Positions 13,656-32,017 of a DNA stretch of 32,083 nucleotides are shown one piece after another. The number at the start of each line of letters is the position of its first letter. The first letter of the stretch is position 1. The stretch covers positions 1-32,083 of the forward strand of contig CAYQXU010000002.1 in assembly GCA_964421685.1 (NCBI GenBank), in the 5' to 3' direction. A program made the translations under genes and the position numbers. The notes under the pieces were generated by a model, which worked only from the letters and a program-made list of their open reading frames with translations, was not told the origin of the DNA and made no database searches. The stretch comes from Candidatus Woesearchaeota archaeon (GTDB lineage Archaea; Nanobdellota; Nanobdellia; Pacearchaeales; GW2011-AR1).

Positions 13656-13661
13656 TTAAGC

Positions 13662-16416: not shown

Positions 16417-16436
16417 TATATTCAAGCTAAGAAATC

Positions 16437-16444
16437 TTTAAATA
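16437..16444 (+). promoter_or_regulatory. Putative TATA box (TTTAAATA, preceded by C)
   Basis: Lies 23 nt upstream of the ATG at 16468. A purine-rich AAGAAA sits just upstream in a BRE-like position. Confidence 0.45.
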
Positions 16445-16467
16445 CAGTATTTTATTAATAAAATGAA

Positions 16468-16605
16468 ATGACAGCATATAGATGTAGAAATTGCAACTAC
16501 AGGTTTGATTCACAAATTGATAGAACAGGAAAAAGCTGCCCTTATTGCGGTAAGAATAGTATCATCGAAGAACCAAATGTAGACCAACTTCTTATGGAAG
16601 AGTAA
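16468..16605 (+). CDS. Small zinc-ribbon protein, 45 aa (not in the supplied ORF track)
   Basis: My translation: MTAYRCRNCNYRFDSQIDRTGKSCPYCGKNSIIEEPNVDQLLMEE. It has CxxC-x14-CxxC. A TATA box sits at leaderless distance. Its stop TAA is followed by A and then the ATG of the next gene. Confidence 0.6.
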   Translation: MTAYRCRNCNYRFDSQIDRTGKSCPYCGKNSIIEEPNVDQLLMEE

Positions 16606-16606
16606 A

Positions 16607-17596
16607 ATGGAGCCTTTGCTAGTTCTAGCACTTTTAGTAAGCTTTCTACTAACTCTTTTTTTCACTCCTGTTTGGATCAAAAAAGCCCATCAAATAGGAC
16701 TTGTTTGGGAAGACATGAATAAGGCAGGACATCCAAAAAATGTTGCAGGATCTGGAGGAGTTGGAGTTATTCTTGGATTTTCACTGGGAGTTTTAGTTTA
16801 TATTGCAATTAAAACATTTTACTTTAAAACTTCTGAAAATTTAATTGGATCATTTACAATATTAACTTCTATACTTATGATTGGGTTTATTGGGTTTATG
16901 GATGATCTTCTTGGCTGGCAGAAAGGAGGCTTGCCAAAAAGATCTAGAGTAATATTATTAATTTGTGCAGCAGTACCGTTAATGGTTATAAATGCAGGAG
17001 AGTCTACAATGCTTGGAATTCACTTTGGAATTCTTTATCCATTAATACTCATACCTTTAGGAGTTGTTGGGGTTTCTGCAACTTACAATTTCCTTGCAGG
17101 ATATAATGGGTTAGAGGCAGGACAGGGTATCATAATTTTATCAGCTTTGGCTTTTGTAACCTGGAAAACTGGAAATTCTTGGATTAGTGTTATTGCTCTA
17201 TGTATGGTTGCTTCATTAATCGCCTTTTACTTTTTTAATAAAAATCCAGCAAAAGTTTTCCCAGGAGATGTAATGACTTATGCAATAGGATCTTTAATAG
17301 CTGCAATAGCTATAATTGGGAACATAGAAAAAATCTCAATTTTTTTCTTCATTCCTTACATTATTGAAGTTGCTCTAAAAGCTAGAGGAAAATTGAAAAA
17401 GCATAGTTTTGCGAAGGTCAATAAAGATGGAAGCCTAGAAATGCCTTATGAAAAGTTCTATGGTTTAGAGCATTTAGCAATTTATATATTAAAAAAGGTA
17501 AAACCTAGTAAGAGAGTATATGAGAGAGACGTTGTTTGGCTAATAAATGGGTTCCAGATATTAGTGGTAATGGTTGGAATTTTATTTGTGCTGTAA
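16607..17596 (+). CDS. aglH: UDP-GlcNAc:dolichyl-phosphate GlcNAc-1-phosphate transferase (AglH/Alg7-like, MraY/WecA superfamily)
   Basis: Polytopic membrane protein with FMDDLLGW (the DDxxD-type Mg site), the archaeal-type NFLAGYNGLEAGQG motif and PGDVMTYAIG. Confidence 0.82.
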   Translation: MEPLLVLALLVSFLLTLFFTPVWIKKAHQIGLVWEDMNKAGHPKNVAGSGGVGVILGFSLGVLVYIAIKTFYFKTSENLIGSFTILTSILMIGFIGFMDDLLGWQKGGLPKRSRVILLICAAVPLMVINAGESTMLGIHFGILYPLILIPLGVVGVSATYNFLAGYNGLEAGQGIIILSALAFVTWKTGNSWISVIALCMVASLIAFYFFNKNPAKVFPGDVMTYAIGSLIAAIAIIGNIEKISIFFFIPYIIEVALKARGKLKKHSFAKVNKDGSLEMPYEKFYGLEHLAIYILKKVKPSKRVYERDVVWLINGFQILVVMVGILFVL

Positions 17597-17607
17597 CTAA
17601 ATAAAAC

Positions 17608-17615
17608 TTTAAAAA
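17608..17615 (+). promoter_or_regulatory. Putative TATA box (TTTAAAAA, preceded by C)
   Basis: Lies in the 40-nt gap before aglB, 21 nt upstream of the ATG at 17637. Confidence 0.45.
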
Positions 17616-17636
17616 GACATTGTCCTTAAGAAAGAA

Positions 17637-20594
17637 ATGGAAAGTTTTGGGCAGGATGTATCTCAAAAAAAAGAAGGTGTTGCTGAGCAAAAACCTAGAA
17701 GCGATGATGTAGATGTAACAAGCCTTGTAAGAGGTTTTAAGAATTTTTTAGTAAAATCTAAAAATAATACCTCAGCTTTTGTTTTTCTTATATTATCATT
17801 TGTTTCTCTAATATTAACTCTTCTTGTTGCCAGCAAAATTAGTTTGGGCACTAATATAATAAGCAGATTCACTCAAATGTTCCCTCTGTGGATTTTGTTT
17901 TTTTTAACTGCAATGCTTTTTTTATCGTATCTTGCTGCTCGTTTCAATAAATATAAATTAATGTTCATTCCTATTATATTATGGATATTAGTCGTGGCTT
18001 GTGCAGTTAGGACAACCAATATTCCTCAATTAAAAGATATAAGTACTGGTGATTGGACTCTGGGTCCGGACTTAGATCCATTTTTATACTTAAGAATTGC
18101 GCAAGAGATTAATCACGGAGAACTACGAAACCCCGATATAATGAGGTACGTTCCTCTAGGTACAGAAAATTACGCTCTAGAGGATTTGATGCCATGGGCT
18201 ATCCTCTTAATATTCAAAATAATAAACTTATTCAACAACATTTCGTTGACTTATGCTGCAATTATAACCCCAGTGATTTTCTTTTTAATATCTACTATCG
18301 GCTTTTTACTTTTTACAAAAACTGCATTTTCATTTAAATTCTCTAACAAAAAAGCTTGGCTAGGAGCCATCATTGCTAGTCTTTTTTATATATCTTCACC
18401 TGCAATGTTACATAGGACAACTGCGGGAATTCCTGAAATTGAGAGCTTAGGACTGCTTTGGTTCTGGTTTATGTTTTTGTTTTTGTGCCTTGCCTGGAAA
18501 AGTGATAGTTCTCGCAGGACAACAATATACAGTGTTTTAGCTGGAATTTTTACAGGATTAATGTCATTGACATGGGGAGGATACAGGTATATCTATATGA
18601 TTATTTGTCTAACAGCTTTAATTATCTTCTTATTTCAAAAAGATGAAAAGAAGAACTTACAAATTTTTATTTCTTGGATTATTCCTGCCCTAATTATGGA
18701 ATTTTACAGGGTTGGAGACATAATAGGAGTATTAACAAGTATAACTACTACGGGATTTGCCTTTTTTACAATGTTCATTTTATTTGTGAATTTAATTATC
18801 TCTAAACCAGGAGTTGAAAGAAAGATAAAAATAGACAAGATAAACATGCCTAAACCAATAAAGAGCCTTTTGTTAGGAATAATATTGCTTATAGTTTTAT
18901 TCACTATAATGAAGAGTGGATTTATCTTAAATGCTTTCAAAGAAATTTCTGAAAGGTTCCTTTACCCATTTGGTAGGGGAAGGGTTGGATTAACTGTTGC
19001 AGAAAATAAAGTGCCTTTCCTTCAAGAGATACTTCAAAATTTTGATTATCTGTTTTGGACCTTTGTCTTTGGAACAATAGCAGTGTTTTATGCTACTACA
19101 AAAAATTTCAACACAAAAAATAAGATCTGGCTAAATTTTGCTTTCCTTTTTATGCTGGCAGGATTTGTTTTTAATAAATACTCTCCTACTAGCCTCCTTA
19201 ATGGGGAAAACTTTATTTCAAAAGCTTTTTATGTTGGCAGCTTTATCATGTTTGCAGTTTCTATAATCTATATCTTAATAAAAGCTTATTTAAGAAAAGA
19301 CGATAAAACACTGAACGATTTTAAAGAAGTTGATTTTTCATATATTTTACTTCTAGTATTTGCTTTTTGGGCGATTGCTTCTATGAGGGGAGCTATAAGA
19401 TTGCTTGTTATAATAGCGCCAATTCTCCCAATACTTTCAGCATTTTTATTCATTAAACTTTTAGATTCTAAAACAAAAAGCAAAGATATGAGAAAAACAG
19501 CAATTATCATAATGCTGATTGTTGTTACAGGATTGTTTTTTGTAACATTTGTACATTATTATGAAATAACAAATTCTTCTACAAAATCAACTATTCCTGG
19601 AGCTTACGAACAGCAATGGCAAAAGGCTATGGCATGGGTTAGAGGGAATACTCCCGAGGGAAGTGTTTTTGTTCATTGGTGGGATTATGGATATTGGGTG
19701 CAAACAATAGGCGAAAGACCAACGGTCACTGATGGAGGACATCCAATATCCTATTGGGATCATTTAATAGGGAGATATGTTCTAACAACCCCTTATCCTG
19801 AAACAGCTCTTAGCTTCATGAAGGCTCACAAAGTCTCATACCTATTAATTGACTCTAGCGATATAGGCAAATATTCTGCTTATTCAAGTATAGGCAGTGA
19901 CACGACAGGCCAAGATAGATTTTCTTGGATTCCAGTGATGATATCTGACCCAAAACAAGTTCAAGAAACTTCAAATGGAACTCTTAAGGTCTATGGGGGA
20001 GGCTTTGGACTTGATAAAGACATAATTTATGATATGGAAGGTAAAAAGATATTTTTACCTTCAGGCAGTGCAGGAATTGGAGCAGTAATTGTGCAAACAA
20101 AAAATAAAAATGACTCTATTTCGTTTGCGCAACCTGAGGGGATATTTGTTTATAATGGAAATCAAATAAGAATCCCTATAAGATATCTTTATTATAATGA
20201 AAGAATGCTTGATTTCAAAAGTGGCCTTAACATTACGATCGATATAATCCCATCTATTTCTTCAACAGGAGGAGGTTATCAAATTGACAAAACAGGGTCC
20301 ATAATATATCTTTCTGAAAAAACCATGAATAGCTTAGTTAGTCAACTATACTTATTAAATGATCCTTTCAAGAGATATCCTACAGTGACTCTTGCTCATT
20401 CGGAGGACGACTCGTTTGTAAGTTTTGTTAATGGACAAGGGGCTAATGTAAAAGACTTTGTTTATTTCAATGGACTCAGAGGTCCAATAAAAATGTGGAA
20501 AGTAGACTACCCAGAGAATATAGCAACGAAAGATGAGTTTTTAAGAACTTCTGGAGGATACGGGGAATTTGATAATTTAACTTTTACAAAATAG
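17637..20594 (+). CDS. aglB: Dolichyl-phosphooligosaccharide-protein glycotransferase AglB (STT3 family oligosaccharyltransferase)
   Basis: 985 aa. About 13 N-terminal TM segments precede a soluble C-terminal domain. WWDYG is at nt 19677-19691. An EL1 acidic motif (GPDLDPFLY) and IPEIESLG are also present. Confidence 0.93.
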   Translation: MESFGQDVSQKKEGVAEQKPRSDDVDVTSLVRGFKNFLVKSKNNTSAFVFLILSFVSLILTLLVASKISLGTNIISRFTQMFPLWILFFLTAMLFLSYLAARFNKYKLMFIPIILWILVVACAVRTTNIPQLKDISTGDWTLGPDLDPFLYLRIAQEINHGELRNPDIMRYVPLGTENYALEDLMPWAILLIFKIINLFNNISLTYAAIITPVIFFLISTIGFLLFTKTAFSFKFSNKKAWLGAIIASLFYISSPAMLHRTTAGIPEIESLGLLWFWFMFLFLCLAWKSDSSRRTTIYSVLAGIFTGLMSLTWGGYRYIYMIICLTALIIFLFQKDEKKNLQIFISWIIPALIMEFYRVGDIIGVLTSITTTGFAFFTMFILFVNLIISKPGVERKIKIDKINMPKPIKSLLLGIILLIVLFTIMKSGFILNAFKEISERFLYPFGRGRVGLTVAENKVPFLQEILQNFDYLFWTFVFGTIAVFYATTKNFNTKNKIWLNFAFLFMLAGFVFNKYSPTSLLNGENFISKAFYVGSFIMFAVSIIYILIKAYLRKDDKTLNDFKEVDFSYILLLVFAFWAIASMRGAIRLLVIIAPILPILSAFLFIKLLDSKTKSKDMRKTAIIIMLIVVTGLFFVTFVHYYEITNSSTKSTIPGAYEQQWQKAMAWVRGNTPEGSVFVHWWDYGYWVQTIGERPTVTDGGHPISYWDHLIGRYVLTTPYPETALSFMKAHKVSYLLIDSSDIGKYSAYSSIGSDTTGQDRFSWIPVMISDPKQVQETSNGTLKVYGGGFGLDKDIIYDMEGKKIFLPSGSAGIGAVIVQTKNKNDSISFAQPEGIFVYNGNQIRIPIRYLYYNERMLDFKSGLNITIDIIPSISSTGGGYQIDKTGSIIYLSEKTMNSLVSQLYLLNDPFKRYPTVTLAHSEDDSFVSFVNGQGANVKDFVYFNGLRGPIKMWKVDYPENIATKDEFLRTSGGYGEFDNLTFTK

Positions 20595-20642: not shown

Positions 20643-21752
20643 ATGAGGGGAGAATATCCTATAGCAATAATTATTGGCACAAAGGCAGAGCTGATAAAGT
20701 GCATGCCTATTATGATAGAACTTCAGAATCAAAAAAAGGAGTATTGGTTTTTACATACTGGGCAGCACCCACTTGAAAAATCTTGTGAGGATTTCAACGT
20801 GAAAAAACCGGATTTTATTTTGAGTAAAGAACCTAAGATAAGCACAAAGTTTTGGTCTAAGATAAATAACAGTTCCTTATTTTGGTTTTTTCTAATGATC
20901 TTTAAAATAAAAGCTAAGCTAAAGGAGTTAAGGCCTGTCTATGTGATATATCATGGAGACACCATGAGTACTGCTGCAGCAGCCATTGGATCTAGTAAGA
21001 TACTTAACCCTAGTAAACAATGGAGAAACGTGCATTTAGAGGCTGGACTTAGAAGCGGATCAATATGGGAACCTTTTCCAGAAGAGATATCAAGACGTAT
21101 AAGCGATGGTTTTTCAGATATACTCTTAGCAGTTTCTGATCTTTCAGAAAAAAATCTAAGGAATGAGTATAAAGACAGAAAAATTATATTAAAAATAGGA
21201 AATACTATCATTGACTCTTCATTGAGTATATATAAAAAGGCAGAAAAAAAATTTAAGGCAGAAAGGGAAGAGTATGTTTTAATTAATAGCCATAGGCATG
21301 AGCATTTAAAAAATAAACAAAATTTAATAAAAATTATAAAGATCATTAATTCCATAAAAACAAAAGGTATTTGGCCACTTCATGACAATACAGAATATCA
21401 TTTAAAAAAGTATGGTCTTTTTGATAAGATTAATAGAGAGAAAATTTTGATAACTCCCCTTAAAAGTTATGAAGAATTTATTTTTCTCCTAGCAAATTGC
21501 AAATATCTAATTGCCGATGGTGGATCTATTCAAGAAGAAAGTCTTGTTTTTAAAAAACCTTGTTTAATTCTGAGAAATAGAACTGAAAGGCAAGAAGGAC
21601 TTAAAACAGGACTTAACTTTATTACAATGAATGTAGGACTAGCTAAAAAAATAATAAATAATATGGAAGAAAACAGAATAAATGTTCAAAAATTCAAGAA
21701 TCCTTATGGCGAAGAGGGGCTGAGCAAGAAAATTGTTGATGCACTTAACTAA
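20643..21752 (+). CDS. wecB: UDP-N-acetylglucosamine 2-epimerase (WecB/FnlC-like, non-hydrolysing type)
   Basis: IIIGTKAELIKCMPI, HTGQH, YHGDTMSTAAAAIG, HLEAGLRS, PFPEEISRR and DGGSIQEE are the family motifs. Confidence 0.86.
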   Translation: MRGEYPIAIIIGTKAELIKCMPIMIELQNQKKEYWFLHTGQHPLEKSCEDFNVKKPDFILSKEPKISTKFWSKINNSSLFWFFLMIFKIKAKLKELRPVYVIYHGDTMSTAAAAIGSSKILNPSKQWRNVHLEAGLRSGSIWEPFPEEISRRISDGFSDILLAVSDLSEKNLRNEYKDRKIILKIGNTIIDSSLSIYKKAEKKFKAEREEYVLINSHRHEHLKNKQNLIKIIKIINSIKTKGIWPLHDNTEYHLKKYGLFDKINREKILITPLKSYEEFIFLLANCKYLIADGGSIQEESLVFKKPCLILRNRTERQEGLKTGLNFITMNVGLAKKIINNMEENRINVQKFKNPYGEEGLSKKIVDALN

Positions 21753-22605
21753 ATAATTGTAACTTTTCCTTCAATTTAATCAATCCTTGTTTTAACTGTG
21801 TTAGCTCAAAGCCAAGAGATTCTAATTTAGAAGTATCGAATGTGGAATTATGAGGTATTTTTATTTCGTATCCTTCGCTAACCCCTATGCCTTCAATTAT
21901 AGAATCTTTTCTGACTAATCTCTCTAATTCTTTTAAAAAATCAATTATCATCAGCCTGTCAGATCCTGCAAGATGGAAGATTCCCGACAAGTCTTTTTTA
22001 ATCATATGCTTTATTATTTTTGATACATCTTCGACAAACAAAGGCTGCCTTATTTGATAAGGCTCTCTCAATTTTATAGGATTTCCTGATAGGACCATGT
22101 CAAATACACCGTTTCCATTCAATCCGCCATGATACCCGTACATTATTTCCACTCTCAAAACAACATTTTTTGAATTCTTCAATACCTCTTTTTCTGCCAT
22201 TAATTTAGTCTTTCCATAAACGTTCAGAGGGTTTGGCAAGTCCTCCTCATTATAATTTCCTTTTTTTCCGTCAAAGACATAAGATGATGATATGAAGAAA
22301 AGTTTTGAATTTATCTTTAAGCAAGCCTCTGCAATATTCTTTGCAGTTTGGTAGTTAAGCTGTTCAGCCAGAGAAGGATTTTGCTGGCATTTCGTCGAAC
22401 TTGTTAATGCAATAGTGTCTATTACAACATCTGGATTGTGTTGACTCAAGAATTTTTCAACTTTTTCTTTTTTAGTTGCATCCAATTCAAATAAATTATT
22501 GCGTTTTCTTCCAAAATAAGTTCCAACAACTTCATAGTCTTTAGAAAGATTTGAATAAAGATTTTGCCCCAAAAAACCAGATGCTCCAATTACAGCTATT
22601 TTCAT
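21745..22605 (-). CDS. RmlD-like NAD(P)-dependent sugar reductase (dTDP-4-dehydrorhamnose reductase family)
   Basis: N-terminal Rossmann motif VIGASGFLG, FISSSYVFDG, and YGKTKLMAE (YxxxK). Confidence 0.8.
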   Translation of the reverse strand: MKIAVIGASGFLGQNLYSNLSKDYEVVGTYFGRKRNNLFELDATKKEKVEKFLSQHNPDVVIDTIALTSSTKCQQNPSLAEQLNYQTAKNIAEACLKINSKLFFISSSYVFDGKKGNYNEEDLPNPLNVYGKTKLMAEKEVLKNSKNVVLRVEIMYGYHGGLNGNGVFDMVLSGNPIKLREPYQIRQPLFVEDVSKIIKHMIKKDLSGIFHLAGSDRLMIIDFLKELERLVRKDSIIEGIGVSEGYEIKIPHNSTFDTSKLESLGFELTQLKQGLIKLKEKLQLFS

Positions 22606-23714
22606 TCTAACGATTCGTAAACTTTTTTATATTTTTTGGCAACTTCAAACCAATTGTTCTCCGCAAAGTATTTTTCGCATCCTCTTAGCATTTTAGCATA
22701 GTTTTTTGGCTTTAAAGATTCTTTTATTATCTTTGGGAATTCGTCATCGGTTTTAGCTATCCTAATACAATCATAACTTTTTGATATCTCTAAAAAAAAT
22801 GGAGCATTACTCGCGATTACAGGAGTTTTTGTTGCCATAGCATGAGTAAAAATGGCGCTGCCTACACCTCCTCTATAAGCCTGGAGGACAAAATCTGCTG
22901 CTGAAAAATACTCCCACCATATAGGCATTTGGTCACTAATCTCTTTTATATCAAATCTCACATATTTTGAGAGTTGGTGTTCTTTTACATAGTTTTGCAG
23001 AAAATCGAGGTGTTCTTTCAGGGCTTTTGCGTTTCTCGTATTTACTGCTATAGGGCTTGAAACAACTAAAATTGTTTTGCCAATTTCAGCGGCTTTTTTT
23101 ACAGGCCTATCCGCTCCGTTGTCATAGTGTAAATTACCTATTATCAAATAAACATGGCCTTTCAAGCCTAGTTTTCTCTTCGCTTCATTTTTAGGGGTTA
23201 TTTTGGCTCCTCTAATAATTCCCAAGGGCAAGGCAACTATTTTTTTTCTTGGAATCGCATAATCTCTCATTAAAACAGGGACAAAAAAATTAGAGTGAAC
23301 AAAAATTTTATCAGAGGCTTTATTTATTAATTTATTTGCTAAATAATAAAGAGATTTTCTCAAAAAGTTTTTTAAAATTCCTCCTTTAAATTTTTCATTA
23401 AGTGGAAGGGCTGTGTGCATTGTTGTAACTAATTTATATTTTTTAAAGAATAAGAAGTAAAAATAAGCCAAGAACAAAGGAATTCCGTAATATCCACAAA
23501 GATTGTATTCATGCTGTATGTGAACTATGTCAAACTCCTTTAATTTAGGAAAAAGGCTGAAAAAAGATTTAGGGCTTCCTGCAGTGTAGGTCACTTTTTC
23601 TATGTCTACTTTGTTTTCAACTAAATTATCAACAAGACTAGCAGAATAACCAGAAATTGCCTTTTCAGATTCTCTGGTTGGAAAAACCATAGCTACTTTC
23701 ATTTTCTTCAGCAC
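22602..23714 (-). CDS. GT-B glycosyltransferase (GT4-like)
   Basis: Two-domain GT-B pattern. The C-terminal half reads GGVGSAIFTHAMATKTPVIASN. ATGA overlap with the downstream reductase. The start may instead be the internal MKVAMVF at 23702. Confidence 0.8.
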   Translation of the reverse strand: MLKKMKVAMVFPTRESEKAISGYSASLVDNLVENKVDIEKVTYTAGSPKSFFSLFPKLKEFDIVHIQHEYNLCGYYGIPLFLAYFYFLFFKKYKLVTTMHTALPLNEKFKGGILKNFLRKSLYYLANKLINKASDKIFVHSNFFVPVLMRDYAIPRKKIVALPLGIIRGAKITPKNEAKRKLGLKGHVYLIIGNLHYDNGADRPVKKAAEIGKTILVVSSPIAVNTRNAKALKEHLDFLQNYVKEHQLSKYVRFDIKEISDQMPIWWEYFSAADFVLQAYRGGVGSAIFTHAMATKTPVIASNAPFFLEISKSYDCIRIAKTDDEFPKIIKESLKPKNYAKMLRGCEKYFAENNWFEVAKKYKKVYESLE

Positions 23715-24738
23715 TTCTTAATAATTCTTTTATTTTTTTAATTGTTTGTTCTGATTCTGCTCCCTTCTTAGAATTCGCGATTTTATTTTTCCACCAAGAA
23801 ATAGTTTTTCGCAAACCTTCTTCTAAGGGGGTTCCTTGAGCCCATCCTAAAATTCTTTTTGCCTTTGAGCTATCTAAAACTAAGAAAGGCTGATCTGATT
23901 TTATAGGTCTTGATGGATACTCTGGAGGGTATTGTCCAAAATGAATTTTTGTTTGAGAAAATCCTAAAACTTCTGCAATTTTCAAAGTCCATTCGCGATT
24001 AGTATATCCTTTTCCTCCTGCAATGTTAAAGGTCTGGCCCTTTGCTTCAGGAGTCTTCATTGCAAGAAGATATGAATTTATATGATCATCTACATACATG
24101 TAATCTCTAATTGAGTCTGGCGCGCCGATATAAATTTCCCTGCCTTCAAGCATTTCTGTTATTAAGTATTCTGTAAAAAAACTATTGTCGTATTTTCTTC
24201 CAAAAGTGTTTGAGTTTCTTAAGATAACAACATTAAAACCATAAACTTGATGCATCATTCTCAAATACATGTCCATAGCTGCTTTTGAAACAGCGTAAGG
24301 GCTTGACGGCTCTAAACTTAAGTCTTCAGTTAAAGAGCTTTCTTTTTTTATACCATAAACTTCTGCAGTAGACGCTGCAACCATTCTCACTTTATCTGGG
24401 CCGTAAAGATCTAAAATAGCTTCTGCAAGATTTATTGTTCCAAAAAGATTAGTTATTTGATATTCAAATGGATGCTCAAAGCTAAGCCTTACTGGGGAGA
24501 GAGCTGCTAAATGCAAAACAATATCAGGATTTATTTTTTTTATAGAATTTCTTACTACAAAATAATCAGTTATATCACAAGAAATAAGCTTAATTTTATT
24601 TTTTATTTCATCAGCATACCCTAGGTCTCTTCCAACAGTATATCTTTCAAATCCAAAAACCTCGTGTCCTTCTTTTAATAGTCTGTGAGCAAGTTCACCG
24701 CCAATAAAGCCCGTTATCCCAGTTATGATTACTCTCAT
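23665..24738 (-). CDS. Extended-SDR NAD-dependent sugar epimerase/dehydratase
   Basis: GITGFIGGEL (GxxGxxG), ASTAEVYG and YAVSKAAMD (YxxxK). The 3' end overlaps the next gene by up to 50 nt. Confidence 0.88.
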   Translation of the reverse strand: MRVIITGITGFIGGELAHRLLKEGHEVFGFERYTVGRDLGYADEIKNKIKLISCDITDYFVVRNSIKKINPDIVLHLAALSPVRLSFEHPFEYQITNLFGTINLAEAILDLYGPDKVRMVAASTAEVYGIKKESSLTEDLSLEPSSPYAVSKAAMDMYLRMMHQVYGFNVVILRNSNTFGRKYDNSFFTEYLITEMLEGREIYIGAPDSIRDYMYVDDHINSYLLAMKTPEAKGQTFNIAGGKGYTNREWTLKIAEVLGFSQTKIHFGQYPPEYPSRPIKSDQPFLVLDSSKAKRILGWAQGTPLEEGLRKTISWWKNKIANSKKGAESEQTIKKIKELLRSAEENESSYGFSNQRI

Positions 24739-24759
24739 AAAGTCTGAATAAAAAACCAG

Positions 24760-24767
24760 TTTATAAG
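24760..24767 (-). promoter_or_regulatory. Putative TATA box (CTTATAAA on the minus strand)
   Basis: Lies 21 nt upstream of the minus-strand ATG at 24738, in the 48-nt gap after the cupin gene. Confidence 0.4.
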
Positions 24768-24786
24768 TTTTATTGAGGTAAAGTCA

Positions 24787-25263
24787 TCATTTTAACATTT
24801 TTTCCAAACCTTGTAAATAAACTCTTGCTTTTTCTTCATCTTCCGGCTTTTCTGAAGGAGCCCATGAAGCAAATTCTTTGTAAGTATTAGGATCATATGG
24901 ACCTTGAGTGATTTCTAGAATTACTGCCGGTTCATCAACAACTACCAAAGTATGGTATTCACTCTGTGGAAGATAGGTTAAAGGAAGGCTGTCTTTTGAG
25001 GAAACAATTCTATAATCTTTTACATCGCCTTCTTCAGTGAATGAAAAAGAAGCAATTTTTCCTTGTAAAGTAAACCAATACTCATCAGCATTTTCAAGAG
25101 GGTGTAAATGAGGCTGTATATATGTTCCTGGAAGCATAGCATTTAACAAAGGCCTTACTCCAATATAATCTCCTGGTTTTAAGGCTCTAGCTTTTCTTCT
25201 TCTAGGGTCAGCCATAGCTTGGGCTAACAAGTCATCAACATCTCTTGAACTAAAAACATTCAT
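24787..25263 (-). CDS. WbuC-like cupin-fold metalloprotein
   Basis: RRRKARALKP...LLNAMLPGTYIQPHLHP...EYWFTLQGK resembles the WbuC cupin family found in bacterial O-antigen clusters. Confidence 0.65.
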   Translation of the reverse strand: MNVFSSRDVDDLLAQAMADPRRRKARALKPGDYIGVRPLLNAMLPGTYIQPHLHPLENADEYWFTLQGKIASFSFTEEGDVKDYRIVSSKDSLPLTYLPQSEYHTLVVVDEPAVILEITQGPYDPNTYKEFASWAPSEKPEDEEKARVYLQGLEKMLK

Positions 25264-25330: not shown

Positions 25331-25338
25331 TTTTTAAA
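25331..25338 (+). promoter_or_regulatory. Putative TATA box (TTTTTAAA)
   Basis: Lies 21 nt upstream of the ATG at 25360. It is the second of two back-to-back boxes in the 96-nt divergent gap. Confidence 0.45.
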
Positions 25339-25359: not shown

Positions 25360-26070
25360 ATGATCTTAAAAACCGCTGTGATTATTGCTGGAGGAAGAGG
25401 AACTAGACTTGAAGAACATACTGAAGACTTGCCTAAACCACTTATTCCTATTGCTGGAAAGCCCTTGTTAGAAAGAGTTATTGAATGGCTTAAGAAAAAT
25501 GGTGTTACAAACGTCGTCATCGGTGTTGCTTATAAAAAAGAGATGATTAAAAATTATTTTGGAAATGGTGAAGATTTAGGGATTAATATAATATATACGG
25601 AACACGATGAAAATGGGGGCACCGAAGATGCATTTAAGGCAGCAATAGAACAATCTGGAATTGAAGATGAAAATTTTTATGCAATGAATGGGGATCAAAT
25701 AACTGACTTGCAGCTTGAAGGAATGACTAATTTCCATATAAGAAACAATTCAATTGCTACTATTCTAACAGTTGATCTTAGAACCAATTTTGGGATTATT
25801 AATAAAGATGATCAGCATAGGATTATAAAATTCAAAGAGAAAGGAGAAATGCCAGGGGTTCCTATTAATGGGGGAATTTATATATTTAGCAGAGAAATAA
25901 GAAAATTTCTTGAAGGGGGAAACATTGAAGAAAAGGCATTTAGGAAACTTATTGATGAAAAAAAAATTCATGCTTTTCACTATGGCGGGATTTGGACAAC
26001 TGTCAATGACAAAAAAGAGTTGGAAAAACTTGAGGAATTTTTAAATAGATATGAAGAGTTGATTAAATAA
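25360..26070 (+). CDS. Sugar-1-phosphate nucleotidyltransferase (RmlA/GlmU N-domain-like)
   Basis: AVIIAGGRGTRLEEHTEDLPKPLIPIAGKPLLE is the canonical NTP-transferase P-loop-like motif. Confidence 0.88.
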   Translation: MILKTAVIIAGGRGTRLEEHTEDLPKPLIPIAGKPLLERVIEWLKKNGVTNVVIGVAYKKEMIKNYFGNGEDLGINIIYTEHDENGGTEDAFKAAIEQSGIEDENFYAMNGDQITDLQLEGMTNFHIRNNSIATILTVDLRTNFGIINKDDQHRIIKFKEKGEMPGVPINGGIYIFSREIRKFLEGGNIEEKAFRKLIDEKKIHAFHYGGIWTTVNDKKELEKLEEFLNRYEELIK

Positions 26071-26071
26071 A

Positions 26072-26521
26072 ATGAAAATACTTATGATATGCAGAACAAA
26101 GGAAGATGAGGTTGGACAATTTATGCCTGGATTAAAAAAAGAGTTGGAAAAAGAAGGTCATTTTGTGGATCTTATTTTCAGAAATGAGGATCTTCACATG
26201 TCTACACTCTCAAGCTCAATGGAAGGACTTAAAGAATTTACAAATAATGAAGATAAAAAAAATAAGTATGATCTAATTTATACGCATGACTGGAGCATAG
26301 CTTTTCCCTTGCTATTCCCCTATAAAACACTCTATGAGAAGCATTGGTGTCTCTTCCATAACCTTCAAGAAGATGGGGATGCTAAATCAAAAATATTGAG
26401 CAAGATAACAGCTAATCTTCTTGGAAGCCATTTTTTAGTAAGAACTGAAGAATTAAAAAGAACTTTTCCAAAATCGACGCTTTCACAAAACGGTCTTAAA
26501 ATAAAAGAATTGATTAAATGA
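26072..26521 (+). CDS. Uncharacterised protein resembling only the N-terminal Rossmann half of a GT-B (GT4-like) glycosyltransferase
   Basis: MKILMI...EKEGHFVDLI...YDLIYTHDWS...LFHN...SHFLVRTEEL follows the GT4 N-domain pattern. It stops at 149 aa, with no C-terminal donor-binding domain. Confidence 0.6.
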   Translation: MKILMICRTKEDEVGQFMPGLKKELEKEGHFVDLIFRNEDLHMSTLSSSMEGLKEFTNNEDKKNKYDLIYTHDWSIAFPLLFPYKTLYEKHWCLFHNLQEDGDAKSKILSKITANLLGSHFLVRTEELKRTFPKSTLSQNGLKIKELIK

Positions 26522-26536
26522 AAATTAATTAACAAA

Positions 26537-27085
26537 ATGATAAAAAAAATTAAACTGGCAGAAAGAGATAAAGCAAAAGATATCTTAGAGGTATACCGAT
26601 CTGGGGGAGTTTGGCTGCCATATACTGACGTGGAAGAGATAAATAAATCAATAAAGGAAAATGAAAAAGGGAAAGTTTCAATCATAGTTGTGGAAATGGA
26701 TGGAAAAATTGTTGGTGCGCTTAAACTTCACAGACCCCAATCGCATATAGGTAAAGGCGGTAAGGTAGCTGTTCTCCCTGAATATAGAGGCCATGGAATA
26801 GGAAAACTGATGTACAAGTCTGCAATAAAAATATTTGACATGGAAGGAAGGAGAAAGGTTGTTGATTCTTTGGTTGGGGATAACCCTTCTGTTTCTGCAC
26901 TGTTTGAAAAATTAGGCTTTGAAGTAGAAGCTAAAATGAGAAAGCATACTCCTGGAGGACACACTTTATACCAGTTTGCATATCATATTGACGAATTAGG
27001 AGTTCCTGAATTAGGAAAAGATGTCATTTTTGATATTCCATTAACACAATATATGAAGGAGCTAAAGCAGAAAAATTTAGAATAG
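26537..27085 (+). CDS. GNAT-family N-acyltransferase
   Basis: The acyl-CoA binding motif A is present: VAVLPEYRGHGIGKLMYKSAI. Confidence 0.85.
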   Translation: MIKKIKLAERDKAKDILEVYRSGGVWLPYTDVEEINKSIKENEKGKVSIIVVEMDGKIVGALKLHRPQSHIGKGGKVAVLPEYRGHGIGKLMYKSAIKIFDMEGRRKVVDSLVGDNPSVSALFEKLGFEVEAKMRKHTPGGHTLYQFAYHIDELGVPELGKDVIFDIPLTQYMKELKQKNLE

Positions 27086-27086
27086 G

Positions 27087-27818
27087 ATGGAGATAATAGA
27101 ACTTTGTAAAATCAAAGACATAATAAAATCAGGTTCTCTTATAGCAATTGGAGGATTTACTATAAATAGAAAGCCAATGTCAGTGATCAAGGAGATTTGC
27201 AAAAGCCAAATATCAAAATTACATCTATACTTTCTTGCTGGTTCCATAGACGCAGATATGTTAATTAAAGAATCAAAAGTGTCTAAAATTTCAGCAGCAT
27301 ATGTTGGCTATGAAGGCTTAGGTTTATCGCACATCACACGCAAGGCCGTTGAGTCAGGTGAAGTTTTATTTGAAGACTTGACAGAGATTTTGTATTATTA
27401 TAGTTTAAAAGTAGGAGCTGAGAAACTTCCCTATTTGATGACAGATTCTATAAAGAACACAGATATAATGAATGTAAACTCTGGCTGTGAGAGAATAATT
27501 AACGGGGAAAATGATGTAAGATGTAAGATTAACGCAATAAATCCAGACTACTGCATAATTCATGCACAAAAGGCAGATAAAGAAGGGAATATAATGATAA
27601 GTGAACCGGATTTTTGTGAGAAGGAAATGGCGCGGGCTTCAAAAATAACAATATTCAGTGTTGAAAAAATAGGAAAAATAGAGCCTGAAGAGATTACCAT
27701 CCCAAAAAAGCATGTCAATTATATTGTAGTTTCAAAAAGAGGTGCGCTTCCAACAGGATGTAAAGATCATTATCTTCCAGACATCAAACAAATTGTTGGA
27801 AATTTAGAAAATGAGTAA
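27087..27818 (+). CDS. CoA-transferase family I, subunit A (GctA/AtoD-like)
   Basis: N-terminal SGSLIAIGGFTINRKPMSVIKEI and the overall layout fit subunit A. It is translationally coupled to subunit B through an 8-nt overlap. Confidence 0.78.
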   Translation: MEIIELCKIKDIIKSGSLIAIGGFTINRKPMSVIKEICKSQISKLHLYFLAGSIDADMLIKESKVSKISAAYVGYEGLGLSHITRKAVESGEVLFEDLTEILYYYSLKVGAEKLPYLMTDSIKNTDIMNVNSGCERIINGENDVRCKINAINPDYCIIHAQKADKEGNIMISEPDFCEKEMARASKITIFSVEKIGKIEPEEITIPKKHVNYIVVSKRGALPTGCKDHYLPDIKQIVGNLENE

Positions 27819-28590
27819 AATATCAGATTTTTTAGCTGTTAACTTAGCAGAAGAAATTTTTGAAGGAGAAACAATAGTGCAGGGAACTTCTACTTTTATC
27901 CCTATGATAGCAACTCTGTTAGCTATGAAAAAAAAGAGAATTAATCTTCTTGGGGGTTTTTATTGGAATCCAGAAGTTTTTCCAAAAGTGCCATCTACTT
28001 TTTGCTTTGAAAACTACAAAAATGGAAAAAGTATAGGGCTGTCTGGATTTTTAGATATGCTTGTGCAGGGAAAAATAGATTTAGAATTTTTGAGGCCAGC
28101 CCAGATTGATAAATATGGTAATGTAAACAATACGGTTATTGGCAGTCATGATAAGCCAAAAATTCGTCTTCCTGGCGGGATGGGGATAGATGATGTAGTG
28201 CATTACTCAAAAAAAGCAATACTTTACGTACCAAATCACAGCAAGAGGGTTTTTGTTGACAAAGTTGATTTTATCACTGCAAGCGGGTGGGATAAAGGAA
28301 AGGGCCCTCACAAAATTATAACGAATATGTGTATATTTGAGTTCATAAATAAGGAAATAACACTTACTAAAATAAATCCTGATTATACAATAGAAGATGT
28401 AAAAAACAAAACTGGGTTTGAGTTTAATATCGCCTTTAGTGTTGAAAAAATGCTTGAAGTAAGCCAGGATATTTCAAATAGAATAATGGAATTGGATCCG
28501 TTAGGAATGAGGGATTTGGAAATTAAAGAAGAAAGACCAATAATATTGGAGAATTTATTAAAAGCGAGATTTAAGATCTCCAAAGGTTAG
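27811..28590 (+). CDS. CoA-transferase family I, subunit B (GctB/AtoA-like)
   Basis: AQIDKYGNVNNTVIGSHDKPKIRLPGGMGIDDV closely resembles, from my memory of that sequence, the glutaconate CoA-transferase B core. Confidence 0.78.
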   Translation: MSKISDFLAVNLAEEIFEGETIVQGTSTFIPMIATLLAMKKKRINLLGGFYWNPEVFPKVPSTFCFENYKNGKSIGLSGFLDMLVQGKIDLEFLRPAQIDKYGNVNNTVIGSHDKPKIRLPGGMGIDDVVHYSKKAILYVPNHSKRVFVDKVDFITASGWDKGKGPHKIITNMCIFEFINKEITLTKINPDYTIEDVKNKTGFEFNIAFSVEKMLEVSQDISNRIMELDPLGMRDLEIKEERPIILENLLKARFKISKG

Positions 28591-29082
28591 ATCTCTAGCC
28601 TCATCATAATCTTTAATCGGCTTAGCGGGAATTCCAACAGCTATGACTCTATCTGGAATATCTTTATTCACTACTGCTGAAGTTCCTATAATAGAATTTT
28701 CTCCAATAGTCACTCCATCTAGTACAATGGCGTTTGGAGCTAACTGGGCTCTTTTTTTAATTCTTACAGGAGCTATAATAATAGGATCATTAGGATTTAC
28801 ATCCTGAAAAACAGAATTATGGGCAAATATCTTTACGCCTACAGAAAGTTTCACGCCATCTTCAATAGTGACCATAGAAGGCACTGCTGTGTCTATGTGG
28901 ACAAACGCGTCTATAAACACATTTTTCCCTATTTTAACTCCACGAGCCCTATTTGCAGCAACTCTTATAGTATTTCCAGGGCCAAAATAGCCAAGAAGAT
29001 ACCAAAACCTGTTCATAATTTTTTTGAAAAAACCTATTTTTATTTCTTTTACAAATCGTTTTCTTTGATCTGTTATTGCCAT
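28558..29082 (-). CDS. Left-handed beta-helix (hexapeptide-repeat) O-/N-acetyltransferase
   Basis: Repeated [LIV]-G-x4 hexapeptides (IGKNVFIDAFVHI..., VTIGENSIIGTSAVV) and a C-terminal VGIPAKPIK. Confidence 0.85.
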   Translation of the reverse strand: MAITDQRKRFVKEIKIGFFKKIMNRFWYLLGYFGPGNTIRVAANRARGVKIGKNVFIDAFVHIDTAVPSMVTIEDGVKLSVGVKIFAHNSVFQDVNPNDPIIIAPVRIKKRAQLAPNAIVLDGVTIGENSIIGTSAVVNKDIPDRVIAVGIPAKPIKDYDEARDLTFGDLKSRF

Positions 29083-29213: not shown

Positions 29214-29235
29214 TAAAACCTTGATTTAGTTCTTG

Positions 29236-30327
29236 ATGAAGAAAATAAAAGTATATCTACAACATCCTTGGAGATTCCCGGATTCTCCTTATTATAAATA
29301 CTTAATTGGATATCCACCAAGAAATGTTGAATATTTTAACACTGAAAATCAAAAAGGAGCAATAACAAAGAAAAGCAAGTTTATTTTGTCTAGCTATCTA
29401 AAAAGGGCAAGGCACTACGCTAACAAGTTGAGATTGCCTTTTCCAAATATGCGATTAACTAAAGAAGGGGATTATAATCTAATTCACTGTACTCATTGTT
29501 TAAGCCGAAATAAGAATATGCCCTGGGTAGCTGATTTTGAAAGTTACTGGCAGTTTTGGCTTTCTGGCAGAAAAACCAAATTAGGTGAGAAATGGACAGG
29601 CAAAATATTGTCAAGGAAAAACTGCAAAAAGATTATTGCCTGGACAAATCTAGTTAGAGATGACATTATAAAAATATTCCCAAACCTTCAAAATAAAATT
29701 GAGGTGGTTTATCCAGCAGTACCTACTCAAAAAAGTAAAAAGAAACATAAAGGAATAAATTTGTTGTTTATTGGAAGATACTTTTACGGCAAAGGAGGGC
29801 TACATGCAATTGAAGCTATAGATAGAATAACGAAAAAAAGAAAAAATACTGCAGCGTGCATTGTTTCAGACACACCTGATGAAATATTCCGAAAATACTC
29901 GGGAAACAAAAAAATAAAATTCCTTGAGATAGTTCCTCAAAAAAAACTCTTTGAAGAAATTTACCCTTCATCAGATATATTTGTTTATCCGGGTTATAGC
30001 GATACTTTTGGCTTTTCTATGCTTGAAGCAATGTCTTTTGGAATTCCTACAATAACTGTTGAAGGAGATGTTAAAGAAGAAATTATAGATGAGAGAAAAA
30101 CAGGATTTATAGTATCATCTGGAAACGCTTCATATAGAGAAAATATAAAAAATTACAATAAAGAAGTAGTTGAAGAGATGGTAGAAAAAGCTCTTAAGTT
30201 AATAGACAATAGAAAATTATTAAGAGAAATGGCAAAAAACTGCATAAAAACAATTAAAGACGGCAAATTTTCCATAAAACAAAGAAATGAAAAATTAGAG
30301 AAAGTGTATCAAGAGGCGCTAAGATGA
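29236..30327 (+). CDS. GT-B glycosyltransferase (GT4 family)
   Basis: C-terminal domain with FVYPGYSDTFGFSMLEAMSFGIPTI...E (EX7E-type region). The ATG at 29236 is preferred to the TTG at 29233 because of the TATA spacing. Confidence 0.85.
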   Translation: MKKIKVYLQHPWRFPDSPYYKYLIGYPPRNVEYFNTENQKGAITKKSKFILSSYLKRARHYANKLRLPFPNMRLTKEGDYNLIHCTHCLSRNKNMPWVADFESYWQFWLSGRKTKLGEKWTGKILSRKNCKKIIAWTNLVRDDIIKIFPNLQNKIEVVYPAVPTQKSKKKHKGINLLFIGRYFYGKGGLHAIEAIDRITKKRKNTAACIVSDTPDEIFRKYSGNKKIKFLEIVPQKKLFEEIYPSSDIFVYPGYSDTFGFSMLEAMSFGIPTITVEGDVKEEIIDERKTGFIVSSGNASYRENIKNYNKEVVEEMVEKALKLIDNRKLLREMAKNCIKTIKDGKFSIKQRNEKLEKVYQEALR

Positions 30328-31103
30328 CGAAAACATTCACGCTGCGTGTTGACCTAGAGTCAGAAAAAGGAATAAAACTAGGATTGCCAAGACTATTGGA
30401 TTTATTGAAAAGATATAACATAAAGGCTTCTTTTTATCTGGTTATGGGGGGGGAATCAAATATAATTGAAATTCTTAAGTACAGAAATAAACTCAAAAGC
30501 TCTGGAGAGAGATCTATTAAGGTGTGGTCTATAAAAGACAAGATTAGGATGACTTTATTTCCAAAAGATTTTGTTAAGAACAATATTCATATTTTAAGAA
30601 GAGTTATCGCTGATGGTCATGAACTAGGAATACACGGCTGGAAGCACAGAGAATGGACCAGGGGATTGGATAAAATAAATACCAGAGAGAGAATTATTAT
30701 GGCAAAGAAAAAATATTTTTACTTTTTTGGGAAAAAACCGGTAAGCTTTTGCTCTCCAGGATTTAACACAAATGAAAAAGTTTTAAGGGTTTTAGATGAC
30801 GAGGGAATCAAGTTTATAAGTGATTTTCAGGATAAAAAAGTAAAGGAATATTTTAAAATTAAGAATGTTCCAATAACAATCCTTGGTGAAGAGAGGACAC
30901 CGATAATAGAGTTTTTAGTGGGAAAGGGAAAGAGTGATGAAGAAATACTAAGCATAATAAAAGAAATGATGCAAAAAGAAGAAATTTGCTCATTTTATAT
31001 GCATGATTTATTTGAAGCTAGGTTTAAATTACCTCTTCTCGAAGAAATTTTCAAATATGTTAAGAAAAATAAAATTCTAAATAAAAGGATTATAGATTAT
31101 TAA
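30324..31103 (+). CDS. Polysaccharide deacetylase (CE4 / ArnD-like)
   Basis: FTLRVDLES...ASFYLVMGG and GHELGIHGWKH are NodB-homology-type motifs. ATGA overlap with the upstream GT. Confidence 0.8.
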   Translation: MTKTFTLRVDLESEKGIKLGLPRLLDLLKRYNIKASFYLVMGGESNIIEILKYRNKLKSSGERSIKVWSIKDKIRMTLFPKDFVKNNIHILRRVIADGHELGIHGWKHREWTRGLDKINTRERIIMAKKKYFYFFGKKPVSFCSPGFNTNEKVLRVLDDEGIKFISDFQDKKVKEYFKIKNVPITILGEERTPIIEFLVGKGKSDEEILSIIKEMMQKEEICSFYMHDLFEARFKLPLLEEIFKYVKKNKILNKRIIDY

Positions 31104-31105: not shown

Positions 31106-32017
31106 ATGAAATTGAATAAACAGCCTAAAGTATCTATAGTATTTGTCAACTGGAATGGGAAAAAATATACCTTTGATCTTGCTGAATCACTAAAAAAGAT
31201 TAATTACAATAATTATGACATTATAATTGTCGATAACGCCTCAACTGATGGTTCTCAAAAAGAAATAAAAAGAAAATATGGGAAAAACGTCACATTAATA
31301 GAAAATAAAGAAAATACTGGCTTAGCGGAAGGAACAAATATTGGGCTGAGAGAGGGGCTAAAAAGAGGCAGTAAATACATTTTAACAATGAATAATGATA
31401 TGATTGTAAAACCTAATTTTTTAGATATTCTAGTAAATAGTATGGAAGAGCATCCAGAAGTTGCAGTTTCAGCTCCCTTGATATACTATATGTATCCAAA
31501 GAACTTGATATGGTGTGCAGGATGTAAATACACAATAAGAGGGTTTAAGCCACTCTATCAAGGAAAAAAAGATACTGGAAACCTTGAAGAAAAATATGTT
31601 GACGGGTGCGATTGTGTTTTAATGATGAGATCTAAAATTTTGGAAAAAGACTGTTTGTTGGACAAAGATTTTTTTGTAATACATGAGTTTACTGAATGGT
31701 GTCTGAGAATCACAAACAAGGGATACAAGTGTCTTTTTGTTCCAGAATCAAAAGTTTGGCATAAAGTGGAAGCCTCATTAAAAGGGAATAATAAAGAAAG
31801 TGAGATCTCAGCATATTATAATATAAGAAATTGGCTTCTGACTGTTAAAAAAAATAAAAGCTTTTTTTATTTTGTTTCCGTTTTGATGCTTGAATCTACA
31901 ATACTTGCATTCTTTCGTTTAATAAAATGGAGGCAAGTAAAGTTAATCAAAACATATTTTACAGCAGTCTGGCATGCAATAATAAATAAAACTCCAATGA
32001 AATTATATCCTTATTAA
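31106..32017 (+). CDS. GT-A glycosyltransferase (GT2 family)
   Basis: VSIVFVNWNG...IIIVDNASTDGS and TMNNDMIV are GT2 motifs. A C-terminal hydrophobic segment is present. Confidence 0.88.
   Translation: MKLNKQPKVSIVFVNWNGKKYTFDLAESLKKINYNNYDIIIVDNASTDGSQKEIKRKYGKNVTLIENKENTGLAEGTNIGLREGLKRGSKYILTMNNDMIVKPNFLDILVNSMEEHPEVAVSAPLIYYMYPKNLIWCAGCKYTIRGFKPLYQGKKDTGNLEEKYVDGCDCVLMMRSKILEKDCLLDKDFFVIHEFTEWCLRITNKGYKCLFVPESKVWHKVEASLKGNNKESEISAYYNIRNWLLTVKKNKSFFYFVSVLMLESTILAFFRLIKWRQVKLIKTYFTAVWHAIINKTPMKLYPY

Follow-up and report, generated by a model that had tools for sequence, protein, structure and literature searches.

A GNAT and CoA-transferase-like gene cassette in the N-glycosylation island of a woesearchaeotal genome

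The 32,083-nucleotide (nt) stretch of DNA analyzed here (positions 1 to 32,083 of contig CAYQXU010000002.1 in the Candidatus Woesearchaeota archaeon assembly GCA_964421685.1; hereafter, the window) carries, within an N-glycosylation island, a gene for a GNAT acyltransferase followed, almost without spacing, by two genes encoding the alpha (CtA) and beta (CtB) subunits of a heterodimer of the GctAB superfamily. These three genes form a cassette that recurs among Woesearchaeota and Pacearchaeota, with a convergent gene for an LbH acyltransferase after it. By alignment, CtB and its close homologs lack the glutamate that serves as the covalent nucleophile of GctB, and the pair carries a different, covarying set of active-site residues. 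We tentatively propose that CtA and CtB constitute an acyl-CoA-modifying enzyme, in the style of IpdAB or AibAB, that would feed the GNAT for the acylation of an amino sugar. In the window, two further genes precede the three, and all five are intact open reading frames (ORFs), full length with respect to their homologs:

25360-26070, plus strand: sugar-1-phosphate nucleotidylyltransferase (PF00483, NTP_transferase, 3e-32)
26072-26521, plus strand: ORF2, a 149-amino-acid (aa) 'half GT-B' protein that resembles a GT4 N-terminal domain
26537-27085, plus strand: GNAT acyltransferase (Pfam GNAT, 2e-12; PF13508, PF00583)
27087-27818, plus strand: CtA, alpha subunit of a GctAB-superfamily heterodimer (PF01144, CoA_trans, 3e-21)
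27811-28590, plus strand: CtB, beta subunit (PF01144, CoA_trans, 2e-18)

The CtA-CtB pair and its active site

The best solved relatives of the CtA-CtB pair are GctAB, AibAB, and IpdAB. A CtA profile compared with the PDB matched GctA (2e-60), AibA (6e-52), and IpdA (2e-48), and for CtB, GctB and AibB were the joint best matches (7e-36), the CtB-family profile aligning to both over the full length. GctAB of Acidaminococcus fermentans (PDB 1poi), the best or joint-best solved match, is, like CtAB, an alpha/beta heterodimer encoded by two genes and shares with it the GGF motif of the alpha subunit (AIGGFTINRKP in CtA) as well as the QxDxxGN motif and a glycine-rich loop of the beta subunit. In CtB, this loop is the thioester-binding PGGMG (28171-28185, within RLPGGMGIDD), where Gly125 is the counterpart of Gly134B in AibB. 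Judged by these motifs, the pair almost certainly still binds acyl-CoA. NagB, RpiA, and the CoA-transferases share a common fold, and the context of nucleotide-sugar enzymes only, along with the lost nucleophile, could point to a re-purposing of CtA and CtB to bind something other than CoA, for instance a sugar phosphate or a nucleotide sugar; we consider this highly improbable because the CoA and thioester motifs are retained and the closest relatives all handle CoA esters.

GctAB belongs to glutamate fermentation, whereas CtAB is encoded among glycan genes, and the two differ at the catalytic center: GctB has the covalent nucleophile Glu54, for which CtB has no counterpart. Residues 44-54 of CtB (INLLGGFYWNP, 27940-27972; family consensus INLIGGFxxNP) include no Asp or Glu. 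In the profile alignment, Glu54 of GctB (IIVESG) and Cys56 of AibB share a column with the variable Tyr51 of CtB; in a MAFFT alignment with Asgard relatives that keep the glutamate (IIFEAGG), the Glu column corresponds to Leu46. The glycines 48 and 49 of CtB lie within three residues of the aligned nucleophile position. By these alignments, the canonical beta-subunit glutamate is absent across the whole CtB family, which extends to the entire family what an earlier reading of this DNA (hereafter, the original prediction) had noted for the (S)ENG signature of this one protein. The two substitutes that this prediction offered fail on conservation: Glu55 (in WNPE) alternates with K, S, and L across the family, and Glu67 (in CFENY) with K, Y, S, N, and F, though it falls in the column of Glu72B of AibB. 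The family itself is well delimited. Across the lineage, CtA and CtB show 56-89% identity, and the homologs of CtB form ~50 clusters at 58-86% identity, labeled Nanoarchaeia, Woesearchaeota, or Pacearchaeota, with the next relatives at no more than 39%. The CtB of the window has a 9-aa C-terminal extension compared with its homologs, which creates a 33-nt 3' overlap with the convergent LbH gene (28558-28590).

Other members of the superfamily lack the same glutamate. In AibAB, the 3-methylglutaconyl-CoA decarboxylase of Myxococcus xanthus (PDB 5mzw), Cys stands where Gct has its glutamate, and the activity is that of a decarboxylase, not a CoA-transferase (PMC7756340). The Cys56 and Glu72B proton relay of AibB is not conserved in CtB, where the respective columns are occupied by Y/F/M/W and other residues and by E/K/Y/S/N, and the partners of AibAB, LiuC (hydratase) and AibC (reductase), are encoded at none of the DPANN loci, an enoyl-CoA hydratase (ECH) neighbor being present only in a distant Helarchaeota locus (L022). 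In IpdAB, the COCHEA-CoA ring-opening hydrolase of steroid catabolism (PDB 6co6, 6con), the glutamate counterpart is Gly57 of the beta subunit, and the enzyme performs hydrolytic ring opening and has no CoA-transferase activity (PMC5380842). CtAB shows only ~25-30% sequence similarity to IpdAB and has a GNAT as its partner gene; the steroid-catabolic context of IpdAB (echA20, ipdC, fadA6) is absent at the CtAB loci, which have no beta-oxidation genes nearby, only glycan genes. ThnP, a single-chain family-I enzyme of the Cat1 subgroup that functions in aromatic catabolism, also lacks the canonical glutamate and transfers CoA only intramolecularly, within a dicarboxylate (PMC11659651).

In the alpha subunit, Glu100 of CtA (codon 27384-27386; motif FEDLTEILYY) is invariant in the DPANN sequences. 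In the profile alignment and in an independent MAFFT alignment, it matches the only residue (E to A) that distinguishes the IpdA chains 6co6_A and 6coj_A. We take this residue to be Glu105 of IpdA, which was reportedly identified by Crowe and colleagues in 2018 as the essential catalytic base of IpdAB. The same column holds Gln in GctA and Gly in AibA. In the beta subunit, the signature EFLRPAQ of CtB (28084-28104; E-F-L/F-R-P-A-Q in the subfamily) replaces the canonical F-L-G-G/A-A-Q (FIGGAQ in GctB). The two features covary without exception: among 62 alpha/beta pairs, alpha-Glu accompanies beta-EFxRP in 32 of 32 cases, and alpha-Cys or Asn accompanies beta-GG or GA in 30 of 30. By this pattern, the DPANN pair belongs to a coherent, widespread, and uncharacterized subfamily that is represented in DPANN, Asgard, and other archaea, in Chloroflexi, and in a few other bacteria, with the canonical glutamate lacking in all of its beta subunits; for these EFxRPAQ/alpha-Glu proteins, the automatic label 'glutaconate CoA-transferase' is probably wrong. 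The two classes are seen among the pairs of the GTDB loci L006-L083, and many members of the second one (alpha-Cys/Asn, beta-GG/GA), from Firmicutes and with the motif LNIPGGVNP, are likewise devoid of the canonical beta glutamate.

Because ping-pong chemistry needs the beta-subunit glutamate and this residue is absent family-wide, the CoA-transfer step that the original prediction assigned to the pair, namely, the production of a non-acetyl acyl-CoA, is left without support. The pair is probably not a textbook ping-pong CoA-transferase; given the loss of the beta glutamate and the presence of an alpha glutamate at the position of the IpdAB base, along with EFxRPAQ, general-base chemistry appears likelier. 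The predicted scheme could still work, perhaps with the nucleophile relocated to Glu100 of the alpha subunit or Glu92 of the beta subunit: an intermolecular CoA-transferase would then convert acetyl-CoA and a free acid into a non-acetyl acyl-CoA, with which the GNAT would acylate an amino sugar de-N-acetylated by the CE4 enzyme of the island. In its favor, CtA and CtB are genuine members of PF01144 and carry motifs for CoA binding, there is an invariant Glu in the alpha active-site region and another in the EFLRPAQ motif of the beta subunit, the pair keeps its synteny with the GNAT, CE4, and LbH genes, and ThnP moves CoA without the canonical residue. Nevertheless, we regard this scheme as unlikely: the candidates Glu55 and Glu67 are not conserved, the two solved Glu-less relatives, IpdAB and AibAB, do not perform CoA-transferase chemistry, and ThnP transfers CoA within one molecule only.

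Conservation and genomic context of the cassette

Gene neighborhoods and BLAST surveys recovered the order GNAT-CtA-CtB-LbH, with the LbH gene on the opposite strand, at about 25 loci of Woesearchaeota and Pacearchaeota type (L001-L005, L086, L088-L091, L093-L109, and the window). Wherever the contig is long enough, GT4 glycosyltransferase and CE4 deacetylase genes, and often a GT2 glycosyltransferase gene, follow downstream; where the sequence reaches, the 2-epimerase gene and aglH-aglB precede the cassette. In the loci with called genes, the GNAT/CtA/CtB junctions range from +1 to -38 nt. Thus, the oddity pointed out by the original prediction, a GctA/GctB-like pair inside a glycan island, is a consistent linkage: that the pair would not be syntenic with glycan genes in any relative is clearly not the case, and the CE4 and LbH genes named in that prediction are constant partners of the cassette (the LbH protein at 71-93% identity).

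Around the cassette, genes are shuffled: between zero and six genes separate the epimerase gene from the GNAT gene, the order of the CE4 and GT4 genes varies, and a dehydratase block moves. Yet, the GNAT-CtA-CtB-LbH order stays intact and always lies between glycan genes, which argues against the view that the cassette is unrelated to glycans and is a small unit for metabolism or protein acetylation that owes its place in the island to nothing but gene order inherited within a narrow DPANN lineage. The overlap of the cassette with the epimerase gene in L088 and L090 (by 4 nt at the epimerase-GNAT junction of L090) and the recurrence of a divergent GNAT beside an LbH gene in another glycan cluster (L087) also speak against such a unit. 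It is suggested, conversely, by the 60-90%-identical backbone common to all the loci, including the order ribosomal-protein operon-SecY-prefoldin-SpoIIM-aglH-aglB, by the fold neighbors of the GNAT, which include RimI, RimL, Ard1, and SpeG, and by the catabolic nature of the distant CtAB relatives. Altogether, we consider a role outside glycan synthesis improbable.

Among the best 80 of at least 580 matches in species-representative genomes, two, one from Woesearchaeota and one from Pacearchaeota, have a glycan context; the rest are bacterial, Asgard, and other archaeal pairs at 30-38% identity without such context. In Firmicutes, the distant homologs occur with a pyridine-nucleotide disulfide oxidoreductase (and, in one case, PduL), others are accompanied by ACAD, MCM, or ECH genes or by AbfD-like and carboxyltransferase genes, and the contexts in Chloroflexi are uninformative. 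These settings support CoA-ester chemistry in general and are not transferable to the DPANN clade. A literature search for glutaconate CoA-transferase in Woesearchaeota returned no papers, and we found the arrangement described nowhere in the searchable literature.

Several of the more distant loci deserve a brief description. In Paenibacillus and Clostridium (L040, 7785-10711; L048, 5702-10711), a Glu-less pair directly follows a gene for a pyridine-nucleotide disulfide oxidoreductase of 443-446 aa, the size of a CoA-disulfide reductase; just upstream, the Clostridium malenominatum locus also has a gene for a PduL phosphotransacylase and several small ORFs, a hint of a microcompartment locus. 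In the Helarchaeota locus (L022, 6640-12930), an EFxRPAQ-type pair is flanked by genes for an enoyl-CoA hydratase, a CrtI-like amine oxidase, and two 'carotenoid biosynthesis proteins', an arrangement that recalls LiuC and AibAB, here in an isoprenoid setting. Outside the tight cassette family, the relative closest to it (39% identity; L084, 218-3397) lies in a locus with the order HAD hydrolase, CtA, CtB, and an oppositely oriented radical-SAM gene; a PGF-CTERM surface protein is encoded nearby, and there is no GNAT gene. The label 'Candidatus Omnitrophota bacterium' that NCBI attaches to P0044 and P0092 was not accepted: the respective locus (L086; contig k141_191095) has archaeal aglB synteny, and the label probably reflects a binning error.

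The GNAT family is tight, with 65-90% identity and almost no outliers beyond. The CoA-binding motif R84-G-H-G-I-G89 (codons 26783-26800) is conserved, as is a C-terminal extension of 45 aa, and the protein has a basic loop specific to the lineage, HRPQSHIGKGGK (26729-26764). The AlphaFold2 model (pLDDT 88.7) matches GNAT structures at E ~1e-9, the nearest folds being SpeG, PA1377, ArsN, and RimL. A guess at the acceptor by PDB sequence search and Foldseek with the GNAT brought up only generic small-amine N-acetyltransferases and did not discriminate. Two loci encode a GNAT without CtAB. In L092, the GNAT gene is followed by an ORF for a surface protein. In L087, a GNAT with 55% identity adjoins an LbH gene within a glycan cluster that includes DegT aminotransferases, a 4,6-dehydratase, and radical-SAM genes, a neighborhood that links the GNAT to sugars and thus speaks for the role proposed here.

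The upstream module and the glycosylation island

The remaining features of the island, including the promoter element ahead of the five genes, are as follows:

16607-17596, plus strand: aglH-like GlcNAc-1-P transferase
17637-20594, plus strand: AglB/STT3 oligosaccharyltransferase
20643-21752, plus strand: WecB-like non-hydrolysing UDP-GlcNAc 2-epimerase
21745-25263, minus strand: four-gene block (RmlD-like reductase, GT4, 4,6-dehydratase, and WbuC-family cupin)
25331-25338, plus strand: TATA-box-like TTTTTAAA, 22-29 nt upstream of the first ATG (25360)
28558-29082, minus strand: LbH (left-handed beta-helix, hexapeptide) acyltransferase (Pfam Hexapep), convergent with CtB, with a 33-nt overlap
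29233-30327, plus strand: GT4-family glycosyltransferase, preceded by a TATA box of its own (at -27); a conserved downstream partner
30324-31103, plus strand: CE4 deacetylase (PF01522, Polysacc_deac_1, 2e-12)
31106-32017, plus strand: GT2 glycosyltransferase; follows the CE4 gene in about ten loci

The genes for the aglH-like transferase and AglB/STT3 mark the island as an N-glycosylation locus, and both are conserved in loci L001-L003, L088, L094, L103, and L107. In relatives, the 2-epimerase gene lies directly upstream of the GNAT gene; in the window, the four-gene minus-strand block sits between the epimerase gene and the cassette. Judged against most relatives, this block is an insertion. 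Its cupin matches TIGR04366 (WbuC; 3e-30) over the cut-off, and the block, taken together with the 2-epimerase, resembles a 6-deoxy-L-HexNAc route of the FnlA/B/C type. Downstream of the five genes come the convergent LbH gene and then the GT4, CE4, and GT2 genes. In the closest relative (L089; 84% CtB identity), genes for NeuB, CTP_transf_3, a GFO/IDH/MocA oxidoreductase, a methyltransferase, and a radical-SAM/SPASM protein come after GT2 (11867-17904), a nonulosonic-acid-type set; the corresponding region lies past the end of the window.

The five genes of the window are joined tightly, with the junctions, in order, TAA-A-ATG, TGA followed by 15 nt and ATG, TAG-G-ATG, and ATGAGTAA (an 8-nt overlap). 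Because the TATA-like box precedes the first gene and no box was found at that spacing before ORF2, GNAT, CtA, or CtB, the five genes are best read as a single leaderless transcript from one promoter, a reading that this promoter pattern supports well. Leaderless organization is a habit across this genome, as judged from the window, where 10 of the 17 unit-leading genes have a TATA-like hexamer starting at -30 to -26 from the ATG, compared with a chance expectation of ~2.5% (binomial P ~1.5e-12). The gene content, junctions, promoter box, and domain assignments of the leaderless operon are all as originally predicted; the notion that the five genes are a single conserved unit did not hold. The nucleotidylyltransferase and ORF2 genes are a module separate from GNAT-CtA-CtB and are missing from most loci. 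The two genes adjoin each other in L089, L091, and L110, and adjoin the GNAT gene only in the window, L089, and L110; in L091, the module lies 8 kb away. In L089 (4088-4669) and L091 (8638-9225), the module is preceded by a conserved ORF of ~193-195 aa with no Pfam match, which is lacking in the window, where the WbuC and nucleotidylyltransferase genes are just 96 nt apart. In L088 and L105, the nucleotidylyltransferase is instead fused to the epimerase, and the stop codon of the 611-aa nucleotidylyltransferase::WecB-like 2-epimerase fusion gene (8169-10004 in L088) overlaps the start codon of the GNAT gene. The contig of L088 is abundant, being present in 58 blocks of the collection.

ORF2 has no match in Pfam; its small family comprises about 17 clusters, with lengths of 135-155 aa, and a 36%-identical relative of 258 aa carries PF13439 and PF00534. 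The AlphaFold2 model of ORF2 (pLDDT 92.5) gave as the best Foldseek matches the N-terminal domains of MshA, GlgM, and sucrose-phosphate synthase (TM ~0.6), and the C-terminal donor-binding Rossmann-like domain of GT-B is absent. The relative and the model thus support 'half GT-B' as a fair description of ORF2. The idea that ORF2 is a remnant of the GT1 gene found at the same place in L001 and L086 was dropped: BLASTP detected no similarity, and ORF2 is a family of its own.

The nucleotidylyltransferase resembles only the N-terminal half of archaeal GlmU, without the LbH domain (profile positions 2-216 of 393 in TIGR03992, Arch_glmU; 2.5e-38, under the curated cut-off), and is 57% identical to the N-terminal domain of the fusion protein of L088. 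This half-GlmU similarity is among the observations that would fit an accessory role of CtAB, as a non-catalytic or regulatory protein binding CoA or acyl-CoA, next to a GNAT that acts in nucleotide-sugar supply or by an Arn-like logic. In the former case, the GNAT would acetylate GlcN-1-P or GlcN-6-P, like eukaryotic GNA1, and the nucleotidylyltransferase and the 2-epimerase would then make UDP-GlcNAc and UDP-ManNAc; in the latter case, the GNAT would add a transient N-acyl group that the CE4 enzyme would remove after transfer to the lipid carrier. This view also gains from the overlaps of the fusion gene (L088, L105) and of the epimerase gene (L090) with the GNAT gene, from the best curated match of the CE4 protein, which is ArnD (NF011923; 2.3e-16, full length), from the GT2 gene that follows the CE4 gene, as arnC-arnD would, and from the GNATs without CtAB (L087, L092). 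ArnD is a deformylase that acts on lipid-linked 4-formamido-arabinose. However, the GNAT has no specific similarity to GNA1, the ArnD score is far below the cut-off (59.9 versus 382 bits), and the 56-89% identity of CtA and CtB, together with putative catalytic residues that never vary, speaks for an enzyme and not a passive partner. A mere accessory function of CtAB therefore seems to us improbable as well.

The window is from a DPANN archaeon of the Woesearchaeota or Pacearchaeota type. Behind a ribosomal-protein operon (L3 to S5) and SecY, it encodes an EMC3/TMCO1-like protein, prefoldin, an IF-2B-family protein, and SpoIIM, after which the glycosylation island begins. The ORF for ribosomal protein S5 (10492-11358) encodes 288 aa, with the S5 domains beginning only at residue 141, which implies either an N-terminal extension of ~140 aa or a wrongly set start codon. 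Scans of the window for tRNA genes and Rfam families found nothing.

A possible role of the cassette in glycan acylation

Taken as a whole, our explanation assigns CtA and CtB to amino-sugar acylation as an IpdAB/AibAB-style enzyme that modifies an acyl-CoA, an analogy that we consider possible and advance tentatively. Within the N-glycosylation island (aglH, aglB, 2-epimerase, GT4/GT2, CE4, and LbH genes), the lineage-specific GNAT-CtA-CtB cassette, with its abutting and overlapping genes, would encode two consecutive steps. CtA and CtB would bind a single acyl-CoA via the GGF motif of the alpha subunit and the PGGMG loop of the beta subunit. With the residue that forms the covalent enzyme-CoA intermediate lost from the beta subunit, and with the alpha glutamate at the general-base position of IpdAB and the beta EFxRPAQ motif in its stead, they would alter the acyl part by hydration, retro-Claisen cleavage, decarboxylation, or enolisation. 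The product would then pass to the adjacent GNAT for the N-acylation of an amino sugar in the glycan precursor; the ArnD-like CE4 deacetylase would furnish the free amine by its action on a lipid-linked N-acetylhexosamine (HexNAc). In the window and its closest relatives, the nucleotidylyltransferase and half GT-B module stands ahead of the cassette, under the one leaderless promoter. This explanation builds on what was observed, namely, the order of the genes and their domains, the residue pattern of the active site, the covariation, and the synteny, and would further involve a physical GNAT-CtAB complex, a particular acyl group, a sugar acceptor, and an order of deacetylation and acylation that we infer.

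As to this order, the 'deacetylate, then re-acylate' logic of the original prediction is plausible, and the reverse, Arn-like order is equally compatible with the data because the best curated match of the CE4 protein is ArnD. The metal-binding Asp/His motifs of the CE4 protein (RVDLE and HELGIHGWKH) are conserved. Like the NodB/NodA and LpxC/LpxD systems, the island encodes a CE4 (NodB-family) deacetylase and acyltransferases together with glycosyltransferases; in those systems, however, the acyl donor is acyl-ACP and there is no CoA-transferase-like partner, whereas the CtAB cassette has one. With ArnC/ArnD, the island shares an ArnD-matching CE4 enzyme with an adjacent GT2; it differs in the order of the genes, CE4 preceding GT2, in the low ArnD score, and in the lack of an ArnA/ArnB-type formyltransferase or aminotransferase.

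Several observations weigh against the proposed explanation. In structure, the GNAT is nearest to N-acetyltransferases that act on polyamines, amino acids, and proteins and not to sugar enzymes; two loci have the GNAT without CtAB and, therefore, the GNAT is not strictly dependent on the pair; and no gene of the island obviously makes a non-acetyl acyl-CoA. The column of the IpdA base is marked here solely by the E-to-A difference between two PDB entries, and Glu100 of the alpha subunit or Glu92 of the beta subunit could be a relocated nucleophile. Finally, all the cassette loci come from one fairly narrow lineage (~60-90% identity) and, therefore, inheritance and not selection may account for part of the synteny.

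A bolder version of the proposal would treat the EFxRPAQ/alpha-Glu subfamily as a mechanistically distinct, uncharacterized branch of the CoA-transferase superfamily, the DPANN members of which were recruited to N-glycan biosynthesis as the obligate partner of the GNAT, making an unusual acyl donor or acylating the sugar amine directly. We consider this version rather doubtful; if true, CtAB would be the first enzyme of the CoA-transferase superfamily known in glycan decoration and would indicate that DPANN cell surfaces carry a sugar with a non-acetyl N-acyl group.

The perfect covariation of the alpha glutamate with beta EFxRPAQ delimits a large, uncharacterized subfamily of CoA-transferase-like proteins without the textbook nucleophile. 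DPANN archaea depend on cell-cell contact with their hosts, and their surface glycans are almost unstudied. Because the cassette is about as conserved as its housekeeping neighbors and lies inside the aglB locus, it may mark a lineage-defining glycan modification in these organisms.

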